Assembly: GCF_024700885.2 (NCBI RefSeq)
Contig: NZ_CP117016.1
Length of the DNA stretch: 64,000 bases
Strand: one strand, 5' to 3'
Source: Escherichia coli
GTDB lineage: Bacteria > Pseudomonadota > Gammaproteobacteria > Enterobacterales > Enterobacteriaceae
Shown: positions 77 through 54,716 of the stretch, one piece after another
How the letters are laid out: the number at the start of each line of letters is the position of its first letter
Numbering within the stretch: position 1 is the first letter of the stretch
Program-made: the position numbers and the translations under genes
The notes under the pieces: generated by a model
Seen by the model: only the letters and a program-made list of their open reading frames with translations
Told to the model about the DNA's origin: nothing
Database searches by the model: none

Positions 77-231
77 TAGAAGGGAACTTTTTAAGATTAT
101 TGCGGAATGGCGAAATAAGCACCTAACATCAAGCAATAATAATTCAAGGTTAAAATCAATAACTTATTCTTAAGTATTTGACAGCACTGAATGTCAAAAC
201 AAAACCTTCACTCGCAACTAGAATAACTCCC

Positions 232-324
232 GCTATCATCATTAACTTTATTTATTACCGTCATTCATTTCTGAATGTCTGTTTACCCCTATTTCAACCG
301 GATGCCTCGCATCCGGTTTTTTTT
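232..324 (+). ncRNA. micF: MicF antisense sRNA (represses ompF translation)
   Basis: Sequence GCTATCATCATTAACTTTATTTATTACCGTCATTCATTTCTGAATGTCTG...CGGATGCCTCGCATCCGGTTTTTTTT matches micF and ends in a hairpin plus T-run; located upstream of rcsD as in K-12. Confidence 0.85.
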
Positions 325-3979: not shown

Positions 3980-4062
3980 CTGTAGGCCAGATAAGACGCG
4001 TCAGCGTCGCATCTGGCATTTGCACTGAATGCCAGATGCGGCGTAAACGCCTTATCCGTCCT
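3980..4062. repeat. REP (repetitive extragenic palindromic) elements between convergent rcsB and rcsC
   Basis: GCCTGATGCGACGCT / GCCGGATGCGGCGTAAACGCCTTATCCG-type palindromic units; yields the typical spurious MPDATL ORF in the track. Confidence 0.7.
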
Positions 4063-14438: not shown

Positions 14439-17075
14439 TTACTCGTCAGCGTCGTCTGCGACATCATCGTCGCTTTCCACTTCCGGAGCGATTTCATCGT
14501 CCCCTTCCGCGGCACTGCCATCGATGGTATCCAGATCTTCCTCGTCAACCGGTTCAGCAACACGTTGCAGACCCACTACGTTTTCATCTTCCGCAGTACG
14601 GATGAGGATCACGCCCTGGGTGTTACGACCTACGATGCTGATTTCCGAAACGCGAGTACGTACCAGCGTACCGGCATCAGTGATCATCATGATCTGGTCG
14701 CAGTCATCTACCTGCACCGCGCCAACCACTAAACCGTTACGTTCGGTAACCTTGATGGAGATAACCCCTTTCGTCGCACGCGACTTAGTCGGGTATTCCG
14801 CCACTGCGGTACGTTTACCATAACCGTTCTGCGTTGCGGTGAGGATTGCGCCATCGCCACGAGGCACGATCAGAGAGACGACTTTATCGCCTTCACCTAA
14901 GCGAATACCGCGAACACCGGTGGTGTTGCAGCCCATCGCACGGACAGAAGACTCTTTAAAGCGCACCACTTTACCTTCGGCGGAGAACAGCATTACTTCA
15001 TCTTCGCCGCTGGTCAGGTCAACGCCGATCAGCTCATCGCCTTCAACCAGTTTGATCGCCACTTTACCGGCGGTACGCAGACGGTTGAATTCGGTGAGGA
15101 CGGTTTTCTTAACAGTACCGTTAGCGGTCGCCATGAAGACTTTCACGCCTTCTTCAAACTCGGTCACCGGCAGGATCGCGGTGATACGTTCGTCCTGCTC
15201 CAGCGGCAGCAGGTTGACAATCGGACGACCGCGCGCGCCACGAGTGGCTTCCGGCAACTGATAGACTTTCATCGAATAGACGCGACCACGGCTGGAGAAG
15301 CACAGAATATGGTCGTGGGTGTTCGCCACCAGCAGTCGGTCAATAAAGTCTTCTTCTTTAATACGTGCGGCAGATTTGCCTTTCCCGCCACGACGCTGCG
15401 CTTCGTATTCAGAAAGCGGCTGATACTTCACGTAGCCCTGGTGAGAGAGCGTCACAACCACATCTTCCTGAGTGATCAGATCTTCCAGGTTGATGTCTGC
15501 GCTGTTGGCGGTGATTTCAGTGCGACGTTTGTCACCGAACTGTTCACGAACCAGTTCCAGCTCTTCGCGGATCACTTCCATCAGACGATCGGCACTGCCA
15601 AGAATACGCAGCAGTTCTGCGATCTGATCCAGCAGCTCTTTATATTCGTCGAGCAGTTTTTCGTGCTCAAGGCCGGTCAGTTTCTGCAAACGCAGATCCA
15701 GAATCGCCTGGGCTTGCTGTTCGGTCAGGTAGTACAGACCGTCACGCACGCCGAACTCTGGCTCCAGCCATTCCGGACGCGCAGCATCATCGCCCGCACG
15801 TTCGAGCATGGCGGCAACGTTGCCCAACTGCCACGGATTAGCAACCAGCGCAGTTTTCGCTTCTGCAGGCGTCGGCGCATGACGGATCAGTTCGATGATC
15901 GGGTCGATGTTCGCCAGCGCCACGGCTAATGCTTCAAGGATATGAGCACGATCGCGAGCTTTACGCAGTTCGAAAATAGTACGACGGGTCACCACTTCAC
16001 GGCGGTGACGAACAAACGCCGCGATGATGTCTTTCAGGTTCATGATCTTCGGCTGACCATGGTGCAATGCCACCATGTTGATACCGAAAGAAACCTGCAA
16101 CTGGGTCTGGGAGTAGAGGTTGTTAAGCACAACTTCACCGACCGCATCGCGTTTCACTTCAATCACGATGCGCATACCGTCTTTGTCAGACTCGTCACGC
16201 AGCGCGCTGATGCCTTCCACGCGTTTTTCTTTTACCAGTTCCGCAATCTTCTCGATCAGGCGCGCTTTGTTCACCTGATACGGAATTTCGTGGACGATAA
16301 TGGTTTCACGTCCGGTTTTGGCGTCAACTTCCACTTCAGCACGGGCGCGGATATATACCTTGCCGCGACCGGTACGGTAAGCTTCTTCAATACCGCGACG
16401 ACCATTAATGATTGCCGCCGTCGGGAAGTCCGGCCCAGGAATGTGTTCCATCAGCCCTTCAATGCTGATGTCTTCATCATCGATATACGCCAGACAACCG
16501 TTGATGACTTCCGTCAGGTTGTGCGGCGGGATGTTGGTTGCCATACCTACGGCGATACCGGAAGAACCGTTCACCAGCAGGTTAGGAATTTTGGTTGGCA
16601 TGACGTCGGGAATTTTTTCCGTGCCGTCATAGTTATCAACGAAATCGACCGTCTCTTTTTCGAGATCGGCCATCAGTTCATGGGCAATTTTCGCCAGACG
16701 GATTTCCGTATAACGCATTGCCGCCGCAGAGTCGCCGTCGATGGAACCGAAGTTACCCTGACCGTCTACCAGCATGTAACGCAGCGAGAATGGCTGCGCC
16801 ATACGGACGATCGTGTCATAAACCGCCAAGTCACCATGGGGATGGTATTTACCGATTACGTCACCAACGACACGGGCAGATTTTTTATAGGCTTTGTTCC
16901 AGTCATTGCCTAGTACGTTCATGGCGTAAAGTACGCGACGGTGTACCGGCTTCAGGCCATCTCGGACATCTGGCAGCGCACGGCCAACAATGACCGACAT
17001 CGCATAATCCAGATAGGAGCTCTTCAGCTCTTCCTCAATGTTGACCGGTGTAATTTCTCTCGCAAGGTCGCTCAT
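14439..17075 (-). CDS. gyrA: DNA gyrase subunit A, 878 aa, carrying Ser83Leu (quinolone-resistance-determining region)
   Basis: [21 protein letters not shown]...; residues 80-87 read HGDLAVYD (wild type HGDSAVYD); codon 83 is TTG at 16829-16827 on the minus strand; Asp87 unchanged. Confidence 0.97.
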
Positions 17076-43109: not shown

Positions 43110-43280
43110 TTCGCTAAGAAAACGCTGACGCCTGAGTTCATTAAGCAGCAAATAGGCCGTGCTTTTAGGGATCCCCAATGTGTCAATGATCGTCGCAGCA
43201 CTACAGGGGCCAATGCGGGCAATCAAATTGAGAATATCAATAGCCCGTGTCAGGGCGGGAACTTTGCTTGATTCCAACAT
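43110..43280 (-). pseudogene. rhmR: N-terminal fragment of rhmR (IclR-type HTH), separated from the rest by the IS
   Basis: Encodes MLESSKVPALTRAIDILNLIARIGPCSAATIIDTLGIPKSTAYLLLNELRRQRFLS (IclR HTH), then reads into the IS end. Confidence 0.6.
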
Positions 43281-46086: not shown

Positions 46087-46689
46087 TTAGTGGTTAACGA
46101 ATTCCCCATCCAGATAAACTTTGCCTTTTTCCACATGCATGACTAAACCATCCAGATAATCAGGTTTAAATGTCGCATCACGCTTATCTTTAGCAATATA
46201 TGTCAGGCAATGATTATGGGTGAAAATAACGATATTTTTATCAGGCGCTTTGCTTTGTAAGTCCTTAATTGCACTATAAATCTCATTACCGCACTGAAGA
46301 AGTCGTTTATCTACCGTCAGCTTTTTACCCGCTGAAAACCAGGTCGCCGACTGAATGGTCCGGACGGTATTACTGGAATAAAGATCGAAATCAGGGATAT
46401 CAGCACTAAAAGCGTTGCCCAGTTCACGGGCATCCTGGGTACCTTTGACCGTAATACCTGTTTTATCTGACAAGCATTGATTGGTTGAACGATCGCAACG
46501 TTCAGCATGGCGAAACAAAACGACAACCGGATGCTGCTGTGCCAGTCTGGCCAGCGTTTTATTGTCGATACGTGGCAAACCATTGCTACTCCAGGCGGCA
46601 TGAGTACCCAGTCCGGCAATTGCAGCGAGCGCCAGTAAAATGATGAAATATTTTTTTGACTTCAACGAAGAGCGGCAAAAAGCTAACAC
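46087..46689 (-). CDS. ais: Lipopolysaccharide core heptose(II)-phosphate phosphatase Ais, 200 aa
   Basis: Start set to GTG at 46689 ([25 protein letters not shown]); histidine-phosphatase RHAER motif. Confidence 0.85.
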
Positions 46690-46881
46690 GTAAACTCCAC
46701 CTATAGACAAGCGCAACCAGACAATTACCGTGAAATTGAGCGACATTTCTGGCGATAATTAGCAGTTGGTGTAATATTAAAAATCCTGCGATGCCGGCAA
46801 AATGCCTCAAAATTTTGCCAAATGCAAAGCCTAAATAAGAAAAAATATAAAAATTTCAATATTTACGTCTAATATTAGTTT

Positions 46882-46898
46882 CTTAAGGTTAAGTTAAT
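46882..46898 (+). promoter_or_regulatory. PmrA (BasR) box upstream of arnB
   Basis: CTTAAG-GTTAA-GTTAAT fits the YTTAAK-N5-YTTAAK direct-repeat consensus, about 80 bp upstream of the arnB start. Confidence 0.55.
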
Positions 46899-46978
46899 AT
46901 TCTATCCTTAGAATTTCGCTCCAAATGGCAAAATATACACAACACTCTTTATAGCAAATATAAGTGGACAGGTATTCA

Positions 46979-48136
46979 ATGGCGGAAGGAAAAGCAATGT
47001 CAGAATTTTTGCCTTTTTCGCGACCAGCAATGGGCGTGGAGGAACTCGCTGCAGTTAAAGAGGTTCTCGAATCCGGTTGGATCACAACCGGTCCGAAGAA
47101 TCAGGCGCTTGAACAAGCCTTTTGCCAGTTGACGGGAAATCAGCATGCCATCGCGGTCAGTTCAGCCACCGCCGGAATGCATATCACGCTAATGGCGTTG
47201 GAAATTGGCAAGGGCGATGAAGTGATTACGCCTTCCCTGACCTGGGTTTCAACCCTCAATATGATCTCCTTGTTGGGTGCAACGCCGGTAATGGTGGATG
47301 TCGACCGCGATACGCTGATGGTCACGCCTGAAACGATCGAAGCAGCCATTACGCCACGCACTAAAGCCATCATTCCGGTGCATTATGCCGGTGCGCCAGC
47401 AGATATTGACGCCATTCGCGCCATTGGCGAACGTTACGGCATCGCAGTTATCGAAGATGCTGCCCATGCCGTCGGTACGTATTACAAAGGCCGACATATT
47501 GGCGCAAAAGGTACCGCTATTTTTTCGTTTCACGCCATCAAAAATATTACCTGTGCGGAAGGTGGCCTGATTGTTACTGATAATGAAAACCTTGCCCGCC
47601 AGCTACGGATGCTAAAATTTCACGGTCTGGGTGTCGATGCCTATGACAGACAAACCTGGGGCCGTGCACCGCAAGCTGAAGTCTTAACGCCGGGCTATAA
47701 GTATAATCTGACCGATATTAACGCCGCGATTGCCCTAACCCAGTTAGCCAAACTAGAGCACCTCAACACCCGTCGGCGCGAAATTGCCCAGCAATATCAG
47801 CAAGCACTGGCAGCTCTCCCCTTTCAGCCATTAAGCCTTCCCGCCTGGCCGCACGTTCACGCCTGGCATCTGTTTATTATTCGTGTCGATGAACAACGTT
47901 GTGGTATCAGTCGCGATGCGTTGATGGAAGCATTAAAAGAAAGAGGCATTGGTACCGGGTTACATTTCCGCGCCGCTCACACACAAAAATATTATCGCGA
48001 GCGTTTTCCCACGCTGTCGTTACCGAATACCGAATGGAATAGCGAACGCATCTGTTCGTTGCCGCTGTTCCCGGATATGACCACCGCCGATGCCGACCGC
48101 GTCATCACAGCCCTTCAGCAACTCGCAGGACAATAA
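46979..48136 (+). CDS. arnB: UDP-4-amino-4-deoxy-L-arabinose aminotransferase ArnB, 385 aa (alternative start at 46997 gives 379 aa)
   Basis: [40 protein letters not shown]; DegT/ArnB aminotransferase family. Confidence 0.93.
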
Positions 48137-49107
<971 letters not shown>

Positions 49108-49108
<1 letters not shown>

Positions 49109-51090
49109 TGAAAACCGTCGTTTTTGCCTACCACGATATGGGATGCCTCGGTATTGAAGCCCTGCTGGCTGCCGGTTACGAAATTAGCGCCATTTTTACT
49201 CATACTGATAATCCCGGTGAAAAAGCCTTTTATGGTTCGGTAGCTCGTCTGGCGGCGGAAAGAGGCATTCCGGTTTATGCGCCAGATAACGTTAACCATC
49301 CGCTGTGGGTGGAACGCATTGCCCAACTCTCACCAGAGGTGATTTTCTCTTTTTATTATCGCCATCTTATTTGCGACGAGATTTTGCAGCTCGCTCCCGC
49401 AGGTGCATTTAATCTGCATGGTTCGCTGTTACCAAAATATCGTGGTCGCGCGCCGCTGAACTGGGTGCTGGTGAACGGTGAAACGGAAACTGGCGTTACA
49501 TTGCACCGAATGGTGAAACGTGCCGATGCCGGGGCCATTGTGGCGCAACTGCGCATTGCCATTGCGCCAGACGATATCGCCATTACGCTGCATCATAAGT
49601 TATGTCATGCCGCGCGCCAGCTACTGGAGCAGACATTACCCGCCATTAAACACGGTAATATTCTGGAAATCGCCCAGCGCGAAAACGAAGCCACCTGTTT
49701 TGGTCGCAGAACACCGGAAGACAGTTTCCTCGAATGGCATAAACCGGCATCCGTGCTGCACAACATGGTGCGTGCCGTTGCCGATCCGTGGCCGGGTGCC
49801 TTCAGCTATGTTGGTAATCAGAAATTTACCGTCTGGTCGTCACGCGTGCATTCTCATGCGCCTGCAGCACAGCCGGGGAGCGTGATTTCTGTAGCGCCAC
49901 TGCTGATTGCCTGTGGCGATGGCGCGCTGGAAATCGTCACCGGACAGGCGGGCGACGGCATTACTATGCAGGGCTCGCAATTAGCGCAGACGCTGGGCCT
50001 GGTGCAAGGTTCACGCTTGAATAGCCAGCCTGCCTGCACCGCCCGACGCCGTACCCGGGTACTCATCCTCGGGGTGAATGGCTTTATTGGCAACCATCTG
50101 ACAGAACGCCTGCTGCGCGAAGATCATTATAAAGTTTACGGTCTGGATATTGGCAGCGATGCGATAAGCCGTTTTCTGAATCATCCGCATTTTCACTTTG
50201 TCGAAGGCGATATCAGTATTCATTCCGAATGGATTGAGTATCACGTCAAAAAATGTGATGTCGTGTTGCCGCTGGTGGCGATAGCCACGCCGATTGAATA
50301 TACCCGCAACCCACTGCGCGTATTTGAACTCGATTTTGAAGAGAATCTACGCATTATCCGCTACTGCGTGAAGTACCGTAAGCGAATCATCTTCCCGTCG
50401 ACTTCAGAAGTTTATGGGATGTGTAGCGATAAATACTTCGATGAGGACCATTCTAATTTAATCGTCGGCCCGGTGAATAAACCACGCTGGATTTATTCGG
50501 TGTCTAAACAATTACTTGATCGAGTGATCTGGGCCTATGGCGAAAAAGAGGGTTTACAGTTCACCCTCTTCCGCCCGTTTAACTGGATGGGGCCACGACT
50601 GGATAACCTTAATGCAGCGCGAATTGGCAGCTCCCGCGCTATTACGCAACTCATTCTCAATCTGGTAGAAGGTTCACCGATTAAGCTGATTGATGGCGGA
50701 AAACAAAAACGCTGCTTTACTGATATTCGCGATGGTATCGAGGCGTTATACCGCATCATCGAAAATGCGGGAAATCGCTGCGACGGCGAAATTATCAACA
50801 TTGGCAATCCTGATAACGAAGCGAGTATTGAGGAACTGGGCGAGATGCTGCTGGCGAGCTTCGAAAAACATCCGCTGCGCCATCACTTCCCACCGTTTGC
50901 GGGCTTTCGCGTTGTCGAAAGTAGCAGCTACTACGGCAAAGGATATCAGGACGTAGAGCATCGTAAACCAAGCATCCGCAATGCCCGCCGCTGCCTGGAC
51001 TGGGAGCCGAAAATTGATATGCAGGAAACCATCGACGAAACGCTGGATTTCTTCCTGCGCACCGTTGATCTTACGGATAAACCATCATGA
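49108..51090 (+). CDS. arnA: Bifunctional UDP-glucuronic acid decarboxylase / UDP-Ara4N formyltransferase ArnA, 660 aa
   Basis: 660 aa; N-terminal formyltransferase and C-terminal NAD-dependent dehydrogenase ([10 protein letters not shown]). Confidence 0.95.
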
Positions 51091-51977
51091 CCAAAGTAGG
51101 CTTACGCATTGATGTCGATACCTTTCGTGGCACCCGTGAAGGCGTGCCGCGTCTGCTGGAAATCTTGAGTAAGCATAATATTCAGGCCAGCATTTTTTTC
51201 AGCGTCGGCCCGGACAATATGGGCCGCCATCTCTGGCGACTGGTGAAGCCAAGGTTTTTGTGGAAGATGCTGCGCTCAAACGCGGCATCGCTTTATGGCT
51301 GGGATATTTTACTGGCAGGTACGGCCTGGCCAGGTAAAGAGATTGGTCATGCCAATGCCGATATCATTCGTGAAGCGGCTAAACATCACGAAGTCGGCCT
51401 GCACGCCTGGGATCACCATGCCTGGCAAGCCCATAGCGGTAACTGGGATCGGCAAACAATGATCGACGATATCGCACGCGGCCTTCGCACCCTGGAAGAA
51501 ATTATCGGCCAACCGGTAACCTGCTCCGCAGCCGCTGGCTGGCGTGCCGACCAGCAGGTGATCGAAGCAAAAGAAGCGTTCCATTTGCGCTACAACAGCG
51601 ATTGTCGTGGGGCGATGCCGTTTCGGCCACTGCTCGAATCAGGAAACCCTGGCACTGCGCAAATTCCGGTGACCTTACCCACCTGGGATGAAGTGATTGG
51701 TCGGGATGTGAAAGCAGAAGATTTTAACGGTTGGTTACTCAACCGCATCCTGCGAGATAAAGGCACGCCGGTTTATACCATTCATGCAGAAGTTGAAGGC
51801 TGCGCTTATCAGCATAATTTTGTGGATCTCCTGAAACGCGCAGCCCAGGAAGGCATGACATTTTGCCCTTTAAGCGAACTGTTATCAGGGTCGTTGCCGC
51901 TCGGGCAAGTTGTTCGCGGAAATATTGCCGGACGTGAAGGCTGGCTGGGTTGCCAACAAATTGCGGGTAGTCGCTGA
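51087..51977 (+). CDS. arnD: 4-deoxy-4-formamido-L-arabinose-phosphoundecaprenol deformylase ArnD, 296 aa
   Basis: 296 aa; overlaps the arnA stop; polysaccharide deacetylase family. Confidence 0.93.
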
Positions 51978-53629
51978 TGAAATCGGTACGTTACCTTATC
52001 GGCCTCTTCGCGTTTATTGCCTGCTATTACCTGTTACCGATCAGCACGCGTCTGCTCTGGCAACCCGATGAAACGCGTTATGCGGAAATCAGTCGGGAAA
52101 TGCTGGCATCCGGCGACTGGATTGTGCCCCATTTGTTAGGGCTACGTTATTTCGAAAAACCCATTGCCGGATACTGGATTAACAGCATTGGGCAATGGCT
52201 ATTTGGCGCAAATAACTTTGGTGTGCGGGCAGGCGTTATCTTTGCGACCCTGTTAACTGCCGCGCTGGTGACCTGGTTTACTCTGCGCTTATGGCGCGAT
52301 AAACGTCTGGCATTACTCGCCGCAGTGATTTACCTCTCATTGTTCATTGTCTATGCCATCGGCACTTATGCCGTGCTCGATCCGTTTATTGCCTTCTGGC
52401 TGGTGGCGGGAATGTGCAGCTTCTGGCTGGCAATGCAGGCACAGACGTGGAAAGGCAAAAGCGCAGGATTTTTACTGCTGGGGATCACCTGCGGCATGGG
52501 GGTGATGACCAAAGGTTTTCTCGCCCTTGCCGTGCCGGTATTAAGCGTGCTGCCATGGGTGGCGACGCAAAAACGCTGGAAAGATCTCTTTATTTACGGC
52601 TGGCTGGCGGTCATCAGTTGCGTACTGACGGTTCTCCCTTGGGGACTGGCGATAGCGCAGCGGGAGCCTGACTTCTGGCACTATTTTTTCTGGGTTGAGC
52701 ATATTCAACGCTTTGCACTGGATGATGCCCAACATAGAGCTCCGTTCTGGTACTACTTGCCGGTCATCATTGCCGGTAGCCTGCCGTGGCTGGGATTACT
52801 CCCCGGAGCACTGTACGCAGGCTGGAAAAACCGCAAGCATTCCGCAACCGTCTATTTGTTGAGCTGGACGATAATGCCGCTGCTGTTTTTCTCCGTCGCT
52901 AAAGGCAAATTGCCCACCTATATTCTTTCCTGCTTTGCACCTCTGGCAATGCTGATGGCGCATTACGCTTTGCTGGCAGCAAAAAATAATCCTCTGGCGC
53001 TGCGGATTAATGGCTGGATTAACATCGCTTTTGGTGTCACTGGCATTATTGCCACATTTGTGGTCTCCCCATGGGGACCAATGAACACGCCAGTGTGGCA
53101 AACCTTCGAGAGCTATAAAGTCTTTTGTGCCTGGTCGATTTTTTCGCTATGGGCATTTTTCGGCTGGTACACCTTAACAAACGTCGAAAAGACCTGGTCT
53201 TTTGCCGCGCTTTGCCCGCTGGGGCTGGCGTTGCTGGTAGGATTTTCAATTCCTGACAGAGTCATGGAAGGAAAACATCCGCAATTTTTTGTCGAGATGA
53301 CACAAGAATCACTTCAGCCAAGCCGCTATATTCTTACTGATAGCGTCGGTGTTGCCGCAGGTCTGGCATGGAGCCTGCAACGCGATGACATCATCATGTA
53401 TCGCCAGACAGGTGAGTTGAAATACGGCCTTAATTATCCGGATGCGAAAGGGAGATTTGTCAGCGGTGATGAGTTCGCAAACTGGCTTAATCAACATCGT
53501 CAGGAGGGGATTATTACACTCGTGCTTTCGGTTGACCGCGATGAAGATATCAACAGTCTCGCCATTCCGCCCGCAGATGCCATCGATCGTCAGGAGCGTC
53601 TGGTGCTGATTCAGTATCGTCCCAAATGA
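51977..53629 (+). CDS. arnT: Undecaprenyl phosphate-alpha-L-Ara4N transferase ArnT, 550 aa
   Basis: 550-aa polytopic membrane protein [48 protein letters not shown]. Confidence 0.95.
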
Positions 53630-53961
53630 TCTGGCTAACATTAGTCTTTGCCAGCTTGCTTAGCGTTGCCGGGCAGTTGTGTCAGAAACAGGCAACCTGC
53701 TTTGTGGCGATAAACAAACGGCGCAAACATATCGTGCTGTGGCTGGGACTGGCGCTGGCTTGTCTTGGTCTTGCCATGGTGCTCTGGCTGCTGATCTTGC
53801 AGAACGTACCGGTAGGCATTGCCTACCCGATGTTAAGTATGAATTTTGTCTGGGTGACGCTGGCTGCAGTAAAACTGTGGCACGAGCCGGTATCACTGCG
53901 TCACTGGTGTGGGGTGGCATTCATTATTGGCGGCATTGTGATCCTCGGGAGTACCGTGTAA
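53626..53961 (+). CDS. arnE: Undecaprenyl-phosphate-Ara4N flippase subunit ArnE, 111 aa
   Basis: 111-aa small membrane protein; overlaps the arnT stop. Confidence 0.9.
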
Positions 53962-54347
53962 TGGGCCTGATGTGGGGATTATTCAGCGTCATTATCGCCT
54001 CCGCTGCGCAATTAAGCCTAGGTTTTGCGGCGAGTCATCTGCCGCCGATGACGCACTTATGGGATTTTATCGCGGCGCTGTTAGCTTTTGGCCTGGATGC
54101 CCGGATACTGTTACTCGGGCTGCTGGGTTATCTGCTTTCCGTTTTTTGTTGGTATAAAACGCTACATAAACTTGCGTTAAGCAAAGCCTATGCCTTGCTC
54201 AGTATGAGCTATGTGCTGGTATGGATTGCATCAATGATACTTCCCAGCTGGGAAGGAACTTTTTCGCTGAAGGCACTACTGGGAGTTGCTTGTATTATGA
54301 GCGGGTTGATGTTGATTTTCCTGCCCACGACAAAACAACGTTACTGA
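53961..54347 (+). CDS. arnF: Undecaprenyl-phosphate-Ara4N flippase subunit ArnF, 128 aa
   Basis: Start set to ATG at 53961 ([30 protein letters not shown]); the ORF-track 222-aa frame is an upstream extension through arnE. Confidence 0.88.
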
Positions 54348-54607
54348 GTTTTCCCTGCCGCTGTACACTGCCGTTCCCACTCATCGGGGCTATAACTGCT
54401 TGCCGAGAGGACTTTCACCGTATGCAGCTTTTCACGATTAATACAATAAAGCGCATTCTGCAAAGGGGAGAGTAAATCCCCCACTTTCACGGCGAAGTCA
54501 CTCTTCACTTCGGCGATCATTTTTATCGCGCCGCCAGCATCGCAGAGCATAAGTACATGTCTGTTATCTTGTTTATTGCAGCACGATTTTTTGACCAGCC
54601 ATTCCAT
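54341..54607 (-). CDS. pmrD: Signal-transduction connector protein PmrD, 88 aa
   Basis: Start set to ATG at 54607 ([35 protein letters not shown]); convergent 7-bp overlap with arnF. Confidence 0.9.
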
Positions 54608-54716
54608 TGCATTATCCTGTTTGCTAAGAGTTTTCACATCAATTTACAGATTAACAGATAAACTCTTTATCAACGGCAATGGAATGGCAGAAATGAGAAG
54701 TGAAACGGAGGGTTAA

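Follow-up and report, generated by a model that had tools for sequence, protein, structure and literature searches.

The locus lies in a stretch of 64,000 nucleotides of Escherichia coli DNA (64 kb, hereafter the window). Here nudI, ais (minus strand), arnB, arnC, arnA, arnD, arnT, arnE and arnF (plus strand), pmrD (minus strand) and menE, menC, menB and menH (minus strand) follow one another in the same order as in K-12 MG1655. The sequence of the window is almost the same as that of E. coli strain 1190 (NZ_CP023386.1): the 18.3 kb around the locus contain 3 mismatches, the first 38 kb contain 2, and the last 9.5 kb agree throughout. The gene calls were scored against NCBIfam models, with the curated equivalog cut-offs and over the full model length. 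In the following list each bit score is given against the cut-off of its model.

46087-46689, minus strand: ais, a pmrG-like LPS core heptose(II)-phosphate phosphatase, 200 aa, GTG start (NF011945, 392 bits against 142)
46997-48136, plus strand: arnB, UDP-4-amino-4-deoxy-L-arabinose aminotransferase, 379 aa (NF008658, 742 bits against 631; 380/385 identical to K-12)
48140-49108, plus strand: arnC, undecaprenyl-phosphate 4-deoxy-4-formamido-L-arabinose transferase, 322 aa (NF007986, 671 against 529; 321/322 identical to K-12)
49108-51090, plus strand: arnA, bifunctional formyltransferase and UDP-glucuronate oxidative decarboxylase, 660 aa (NF005998, 1258 against 777; 651/660 identical to K-12)
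51087-51977, plus strand: arnD, deformylase, 296 aa (NF011923, 521 bits against 382)
51977-53629, plus strand: arnT, lipid A L-Ara4N transferase, 550 aa (NF009784, 815 bits against 567)
53626-53961, plus strand: arnE, flippase subunit, 111 aa (NF011625, 209 bits against 92)
53961-54347, plus strand: arnF, flippase subunit, 128 aa (NF002816, 139 bits against 99)
54341-54607, minus strand: pmrD, connector protein, 88 aa (NF011994, 174 bits against 96; 86/88 identical to K-12)

The seven arn proteins and PmrD all score above the equivalog cut-offs over the whole model. Ais, divergent from arnB and identical to its K-12 counterpart at 199 of 200 residues, scores above the cut-off of the subfamily model NF011945 and does not reach the one set for the PmrG equivalog. 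From arnB to arnF, as well as in pmrD and ais, the lengths are those of K-12, internal stop codons are absent, and amino-acid identity ranges from 97 to 99.7%. An earlier sequence-only reading of this DNA had called all seven arn genes intact, and the reference lengths, the order B-C-A-D-T-E-F on one strand and the equivalog scores bear this out. It had also described the genes as tightly overlapping, which applies to five of the six junctions: arnC/arnA, arnD/arnT and arnE/arnF overlap by 1 nt, and arnA/arnD (ATGA) and arnT/arnE by 4 nt. The arnB/arnC junction is the exception, with a 3-nt gap between the stop (48136) and the start (48140). The overlapping stop and start codons suggest that translation of the arn genes is coupled. 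At the far end of the operon, pmrD on the minus strand is convergent with arnF, again as claimed, and the two 3' ends overlap by 7 nt (54341-54347). Terminator-like sites at this junction occur at chance level only. Upstream of pmrD (54608-54716), a direct reading of the sequence finds the hexamers AGTTTA, TGTTAA and TGTAAA, 8 bp apart, an arrangement distinct from the canonical PhoP box TGTTTA-N5-TGTTTA.

Several further features are seen elsewhere in the window. In gyrA (14439-17075, minus strand), codon 83 (16827-16829) is TTG (Leu), as against TCG (Ser) in the near-identical strain 1190, and residue 87 is still Asp; S83L is the classic first step towards quinolone resistance. According to the annotation of strain 1190, a copy of ISEc46 (IS200/IS605 family) separates two fragments of an IclR/HTH regulator (rhmR/yfaX) at about 41023-43280, with tnpB at about 41391-42560 (minus strand) and tnpA at about 42617-43042 (plus strand). 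In the same annotation the MFS transporter and yfaY have no rhmD (yfaW) between them, which suggests a disrupted L-rhamnonate locus. A hypothetical gene between glpQ and a LysR-family regulator (about 29824-30894) is annotated there as a frameshifted pseudogene. Rfam matches comprise MicF RNA (231-324, plus strand) and naRNA4 (3985-4061, minus strand).

The region between the divergent genes ais and arnB extends from 46690 to 46978, or to 46996 with the arnB start at ATG 46997. The upstream boundary had been drawn at 46747 in the sequence-only reading, which implies an ais start at ATG 46746; this start is not upheld, the annotated one being GTG 46689 in both K-12 and strain 1190. At the other boundary, ATG 46979 is annotated as the arnB start in K-12 (385 aa) and ATG 46997 in RefSeq/PGAP (379 aa). 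Across the genera aligned, ATG 46997 is invariant together with its AAGGA ribosome-binding site, whereas ATG 46979 is not. Of 5426 complete E. coli genomes, 5415 contain a match to the intergenic DNA, which is chromosomal in every case. The region contains the following elements.

46882-46898, plus strand: PmrA (BasR) box CTTAAGGTTAAGTTAAT, read directly from the sequence as CTTAAG, GTTAA and GTTAAT
46882-46887, plus strand: half-site 1, CTTAAG, the first hexamer of the box
46893-46898, plus strand: half-site 2, GTTAAT, the second hexamer, preceded by the 5-bp spacer GTTAA
46909-46914, plus strand: predicted -10 hexamer TAGAAT of the arnB promoter, 10 bp past the box, with T, A and the final T invariant in the alignment
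46920-46996, plus strand: predicted arnB 5' leader of about 75 nt, placed from the position of the -10 hexamer

CTTAAG-N5-GTTAAT is present on the plus strand exactly where it had been reported, and its two hexamers, separated by the 5-bp spacer, form a direct repeat with half-sites 11 bp apart. Its agreement with the PmrA direct-repeat consensus, also claimed from the sequence, depends on the form of the consensus. Verified Salmonella boxes are quoted as CTTAAG-N5-XTTAAT, which the arnB box fits exactly (PMC3973317). The strict form YTTAAK-N5-YTTAAK is missed by one base because half-site 2 starts with G rather than Y, and it has no match anywhere in the 64 kb window. The strict consensus is too narrow, and relaxed forms of the motif were therefore used for the scans. 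With CTTAAG-N5-NTTAAT, YTTAAK-N5-NTTAAK and YTTAAK-N6-YTAAK, the box is the sole match on both strands of the window, where about 0.17 matches to the motif would be expected by chance with one mismatch allowed. On the minus strand, a look-alike with one mismatch, CTTAAGAATAAGTTATT, occupies 158-174, close to micF on its upstream side; it is probably a chance match in AT-rich DNA.

Conservation of the box was followed from strains of E. coli to other genera. Base for base, the box is identical in K-12 MG1655 and five other sampled E. coli strains. The promoter region was then aligned for E. coli, Escherichia sp. E1V33, E. albertii, six Citrobacter, Phytobacter and one further enterobacterium. 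The positions without variation in that alignment are concentrated in two places, CTTAAGG.T.A.TTAA and the hexamer 10 bp downstream (its T, A and final T), and the flanks vary. A scan for ArnB in species-representative genomes gave 80 Enterobacterales loci, Salmonella being absent from the 80, and 78 of them have enough upstream DNA. An exact YTTAAK-N6-YTAAK box occurs on the arnB strand, 81-300 nt upstream of arnB, in 57 of these 78 species, against 0.4 expected from composition-matched shuffles; on the opposite strand such boxes occur at 4 loci. Across the Enterobacterales, TAnnnT lies exactly 10 bp 3' of the box in 68 of 73 boxes, and the half-sites of the 73 boxes are spaced by 11 bp.

Two related loci show rearrangements beside these elements. 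In E. coli EC5931 (NZ_CP104592.1, a blood isolate), the match to the window sets in only at CTTAAG, the first half-site, and a gene for an IS1 transposase is annotated some 55 bp further upstream; IS1 appears to have inserted beside the PmrA box and to have taken the place of the DNA on the upstream side of the arnB promoter. Citrobacter amalonaticus has the box and the -10 hexamer as in E. coli, about 330 nt upstream of arnB, and carries an insertion of about 200 bp in the arnB leader, which by eye resembles an enterobacterial repeat of the ERIC type.

The fixed 10-bp geometry across species places the -10 hexamer of the window at TAGAAT (46909-46914) and the box at the -35 position. A separate -35 element is missing from the arnB promoter; the box sits in its place, 115 nt upstream of ATG 46997. 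A generic sigma-70 scan did not call this promoter and returned two matches, against 1.2 expected by chance; the miss is to be expected, since the promoter would be activator-dependent and is devoid of a -35 element. PhoB pho box promoters, of the OmpR/PhoB family, have a direct repeat one helical turn apart, 10 bp upstream of the -10 hexamer, and no -35 element. The arnB promoter resembles them in layout and differs in regulator and half-site sequence, so that the likeness is an analogy of mechanism and not of membership.

Compared with the arnB promoter of K-12, the box is identical, the -10 hexamer reads TAGAAT instead of TAAAAT, and there are four more SNPs on the upstream, ais-facing side of the box. 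TAAAAT is also found in the other sampled E. coli. Full identity to the window over 46868-46917 is confined to 139 of 5401 E. coli genomes, and all sampled others carry TAAAAT. The G of TAGAAT is common to E. albertii and Escherichia sp. E1V33, both of which have TAGCAT. Transcription probably starts near 46920-46923, as judged from the -10 position. The predicted leader has no significant fold (z = 0.07) and matches no Rfam family, and no riboswitch or attenuator signal was seen in it. A 9-codon open reading frame at 46925 within the leader was dismissed, as it is not conserved in Citrobacter.

Among known systems, the closest are Salmonella pbgP (pmrH/arnB) and K-12 arnB (yfbE), which have the same divergent ais/pmrG, the same downstream arnBCADTEF and CTTAAG-N5-XTTAAT (PMC3973317); for Salmonella pbgP the comparison is with the published consensus and not a direct sequence alignment. 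Box1 of Klebsiella pneumoniae pbgP, TCTTAATATTATCCTAAGC, has the same position, the 11-bp periodicity of half-sites and TAnnnT 10 bp downstream. Its half-sites are CTTAAT/CCTAAG, as against CTTAAG/GTTAAT here, and Klebsiella pbgP is further equipped with a PhoP box and a second promoter that depends on PhoP, an arrangement that E. coli lacks (PMC2565834). This Klebsiella box has been footprinted with PmrA by DNase I and examined in a structural study (PMC2565834; PMC3973317), and in the present set the Klebsiella and Raoultella loci carry this PmrA-footprinted box, CTTAATATTATCCTAAG, at the position of the arnB box.

For the binding of PmrA, and for the dependence of induction on PmrA/BasR in K-12, the published record is followed here. 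A K-12 P_arnB-gfp reporter is induced by Fe, low pH and low Mg, and this induction requires pmrA and partly pmrD (bioRxiv 10.1101/2020.05.05.080051). Constitutive basS or basR alleles raise arnB-lacZ 31- to 72-fold in K-12 (PMC8151780), and a K-12 yfbE::gfp fusion is basS-dependent (PMC2270907). In a comparison of orthologues, yfbE is among the genes with conserved instances of the PmrA motif (E. coli, Y. pestis) (PMC1525208). A PmrA motif is also marked in the E. coli (EPEC) arn promoter, where its departure from the consensus is called 'a slight modification' (PMC10729948). In the literature searched, which stops short of the early primary papers, no PmrA/BasR footprint or mapped transcription start was found for the E. 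coli arnB promoter. Identity with K-12, conservation across species and the published data together support the reading of the element as a PmrA/BasR box upstream of arnB. The 17-bp direct repeat at 46882-46898 is, very probably, the operator for phosphorylated PmrA (BasR) at the arnB promoter.

That the box is a chance match in AT-rich intergenic DNA, with no regulatory role, has next to no probability. The AT-richness of the region, the one-base departure from the strict consensus and the one-mismatch look-alike at 158-174 speak for it, but the box is unique in the window, and a chance occurrence is effectively refuted by the counts over species (57 of 78 against 0.4), by the columns that are invariant at the box and the -10 hexamer while the flanks vary, and by the constant distance to the -10 that 68 of 73 boxes keep. 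The sign of the regulation has been questioned as well. A model for EPEC O125ac:H6 has PmrA at the box repress the arn promoter by occluding RNA polymerase, on the grounds that a predicted sigma-70 site falls within the PmrA motif and that a pmrA qseC double mutant over-expresses arnB (PMC10729948). Such repression is very improbable for the present promoter: the constitutive basS/basR alleles act in the opposite sense in K-12 (PMC8151780), induction of P_arnB-gfp requires pmrA (bioRxiv 10.1101/2020.05.05.080051), and a box 10 bp before the -10, with no -35 (68/73), is the layout of an activator-dependent promoter.

Two other proposals leave PmrA at the box and add a second function to it. The paralogous response regulator QseB~P, which can be phosphorylated by PmrB, may share the box or even be its main user, and QseBC and PmrAB would then cross-regulate at this point; as an addition to the main explanation this is possible, though it is the less probable course. 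A 60-mer EMSA probe containing the exact box string (ATTTACGTCTAATATTAGTTTCTTAAGGTTAAGTTAATATTC...) is shifted by phosphorylated QseB, PmrA not having been used in that assay, and arnB is constitutively up in the pmrA qseC double mutant (PMC10729948). The box also contains three overlapping TTAAK units (46883, 46889 and 46894), which could offer PmrA and QseB alternative binding registers. On the other hand, the best intergenic match to the quoted QseB consensus, GCGATAATTAGCAGTT (46752-46767, plus strand, 1 mismatch), lies nearer to ais, about 115 bp upstream of the box, and falls outside the 60-mer; conservation across species tracks the PmrA half-site pattern and the fixed -10 spacing; and the K-12 reporter needs pmrA for its induction (bioRxiv 10.1101/2020.05.05.080051). 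A further speculation, to which little credence is given, is that the TAGAAT allele may alter basal or induced arn expression, and hence polymyxin tolerance, in its lineage, or that the TTAAK units give PmrA and QseB different registers. The remaining proposal is that a single PmrA site activates both transcription units, the box serving the divergent ais promoter too. This is unlikely. It would account for the absence of a second full PmrA box on either strand of 46690-46996, where the best minus-strand candidates have at least 2 mismatches, and it is compatible with the half-site CTTAAG being its own reverse complement, with a minus-strand sigma-70-like promoter (TAGACG-16-TATATT, 46871 to 46844) that begins 11 bp from the box, and with the place of ais in the PmrA regulon of Salmonella (PMC1525208). 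However, direct-repeat sites of the OmpR/PhoB type are directional, and read on the minus strand the box departs from the motif at 2 positions. The promoter match on that strand is at chance level (2 matches against 1.2 expected), and the comparison of orthologues did not find a conserved PmrA motif for ais outside Salmonella (PMC1525208).

With the repeat taken as the operator for phosphorylated PmrA, a PmrA~P dimer would bind the two hexamers head-to-tail, 11 bp or one helical turn apart. With its end 10 bp short of the predicted -10 hexamer TAGAAT, the box would stand in for the -35 element, and the bound PmrA would recruit sigma-70 RNA polymerase, as PhoB does at pho boxes; this mode of recruitment is modelled on PhoB. 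Transcription would proceed from near 46920-46923 through the unstructured leader of about 75 nt into arnBCADTEF, where the overlapping stop and start codons may favour coupled translation. The arn products are expected to make and flip undecaprenyl-phosphate-L-Ara4N and to transfer L-Ara4N to lipid A, which would bind less polymyxin and cationic peptide as a result. PmrD, encoded convergently, would connect PhoPQ signals to PmrA~P. The statement of the sequence-only reading that inducible Ara4N modification looks functional holds for the structural genes and the cis element, both of which are intact, whereas inducibility is not demonstrable from the window, as the regulator genes basRS (pmrAB), along with phoPQ and eptA, lie outside it.

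In conclusion, the locus is the known PmrA/BasR-activated arnB promoter followed by an ordinary, intact arn-pmrD locus, and it has already been described; the site, the operon and the regulation are all textbook, and no new biology is added. For the in silico prediction of PmrA-activated promoters, the composite of PmrA box, 10 bp and TAnnnT is far more specific than the consensus of the half-sites by itself. The E. coli strain analysed here has the standard chromosomal machinery and the cis switch for inducible L-Ara4N modification of lipid A, a pathway that bears on tolerance to polymyxin and colistin and to host peptides.
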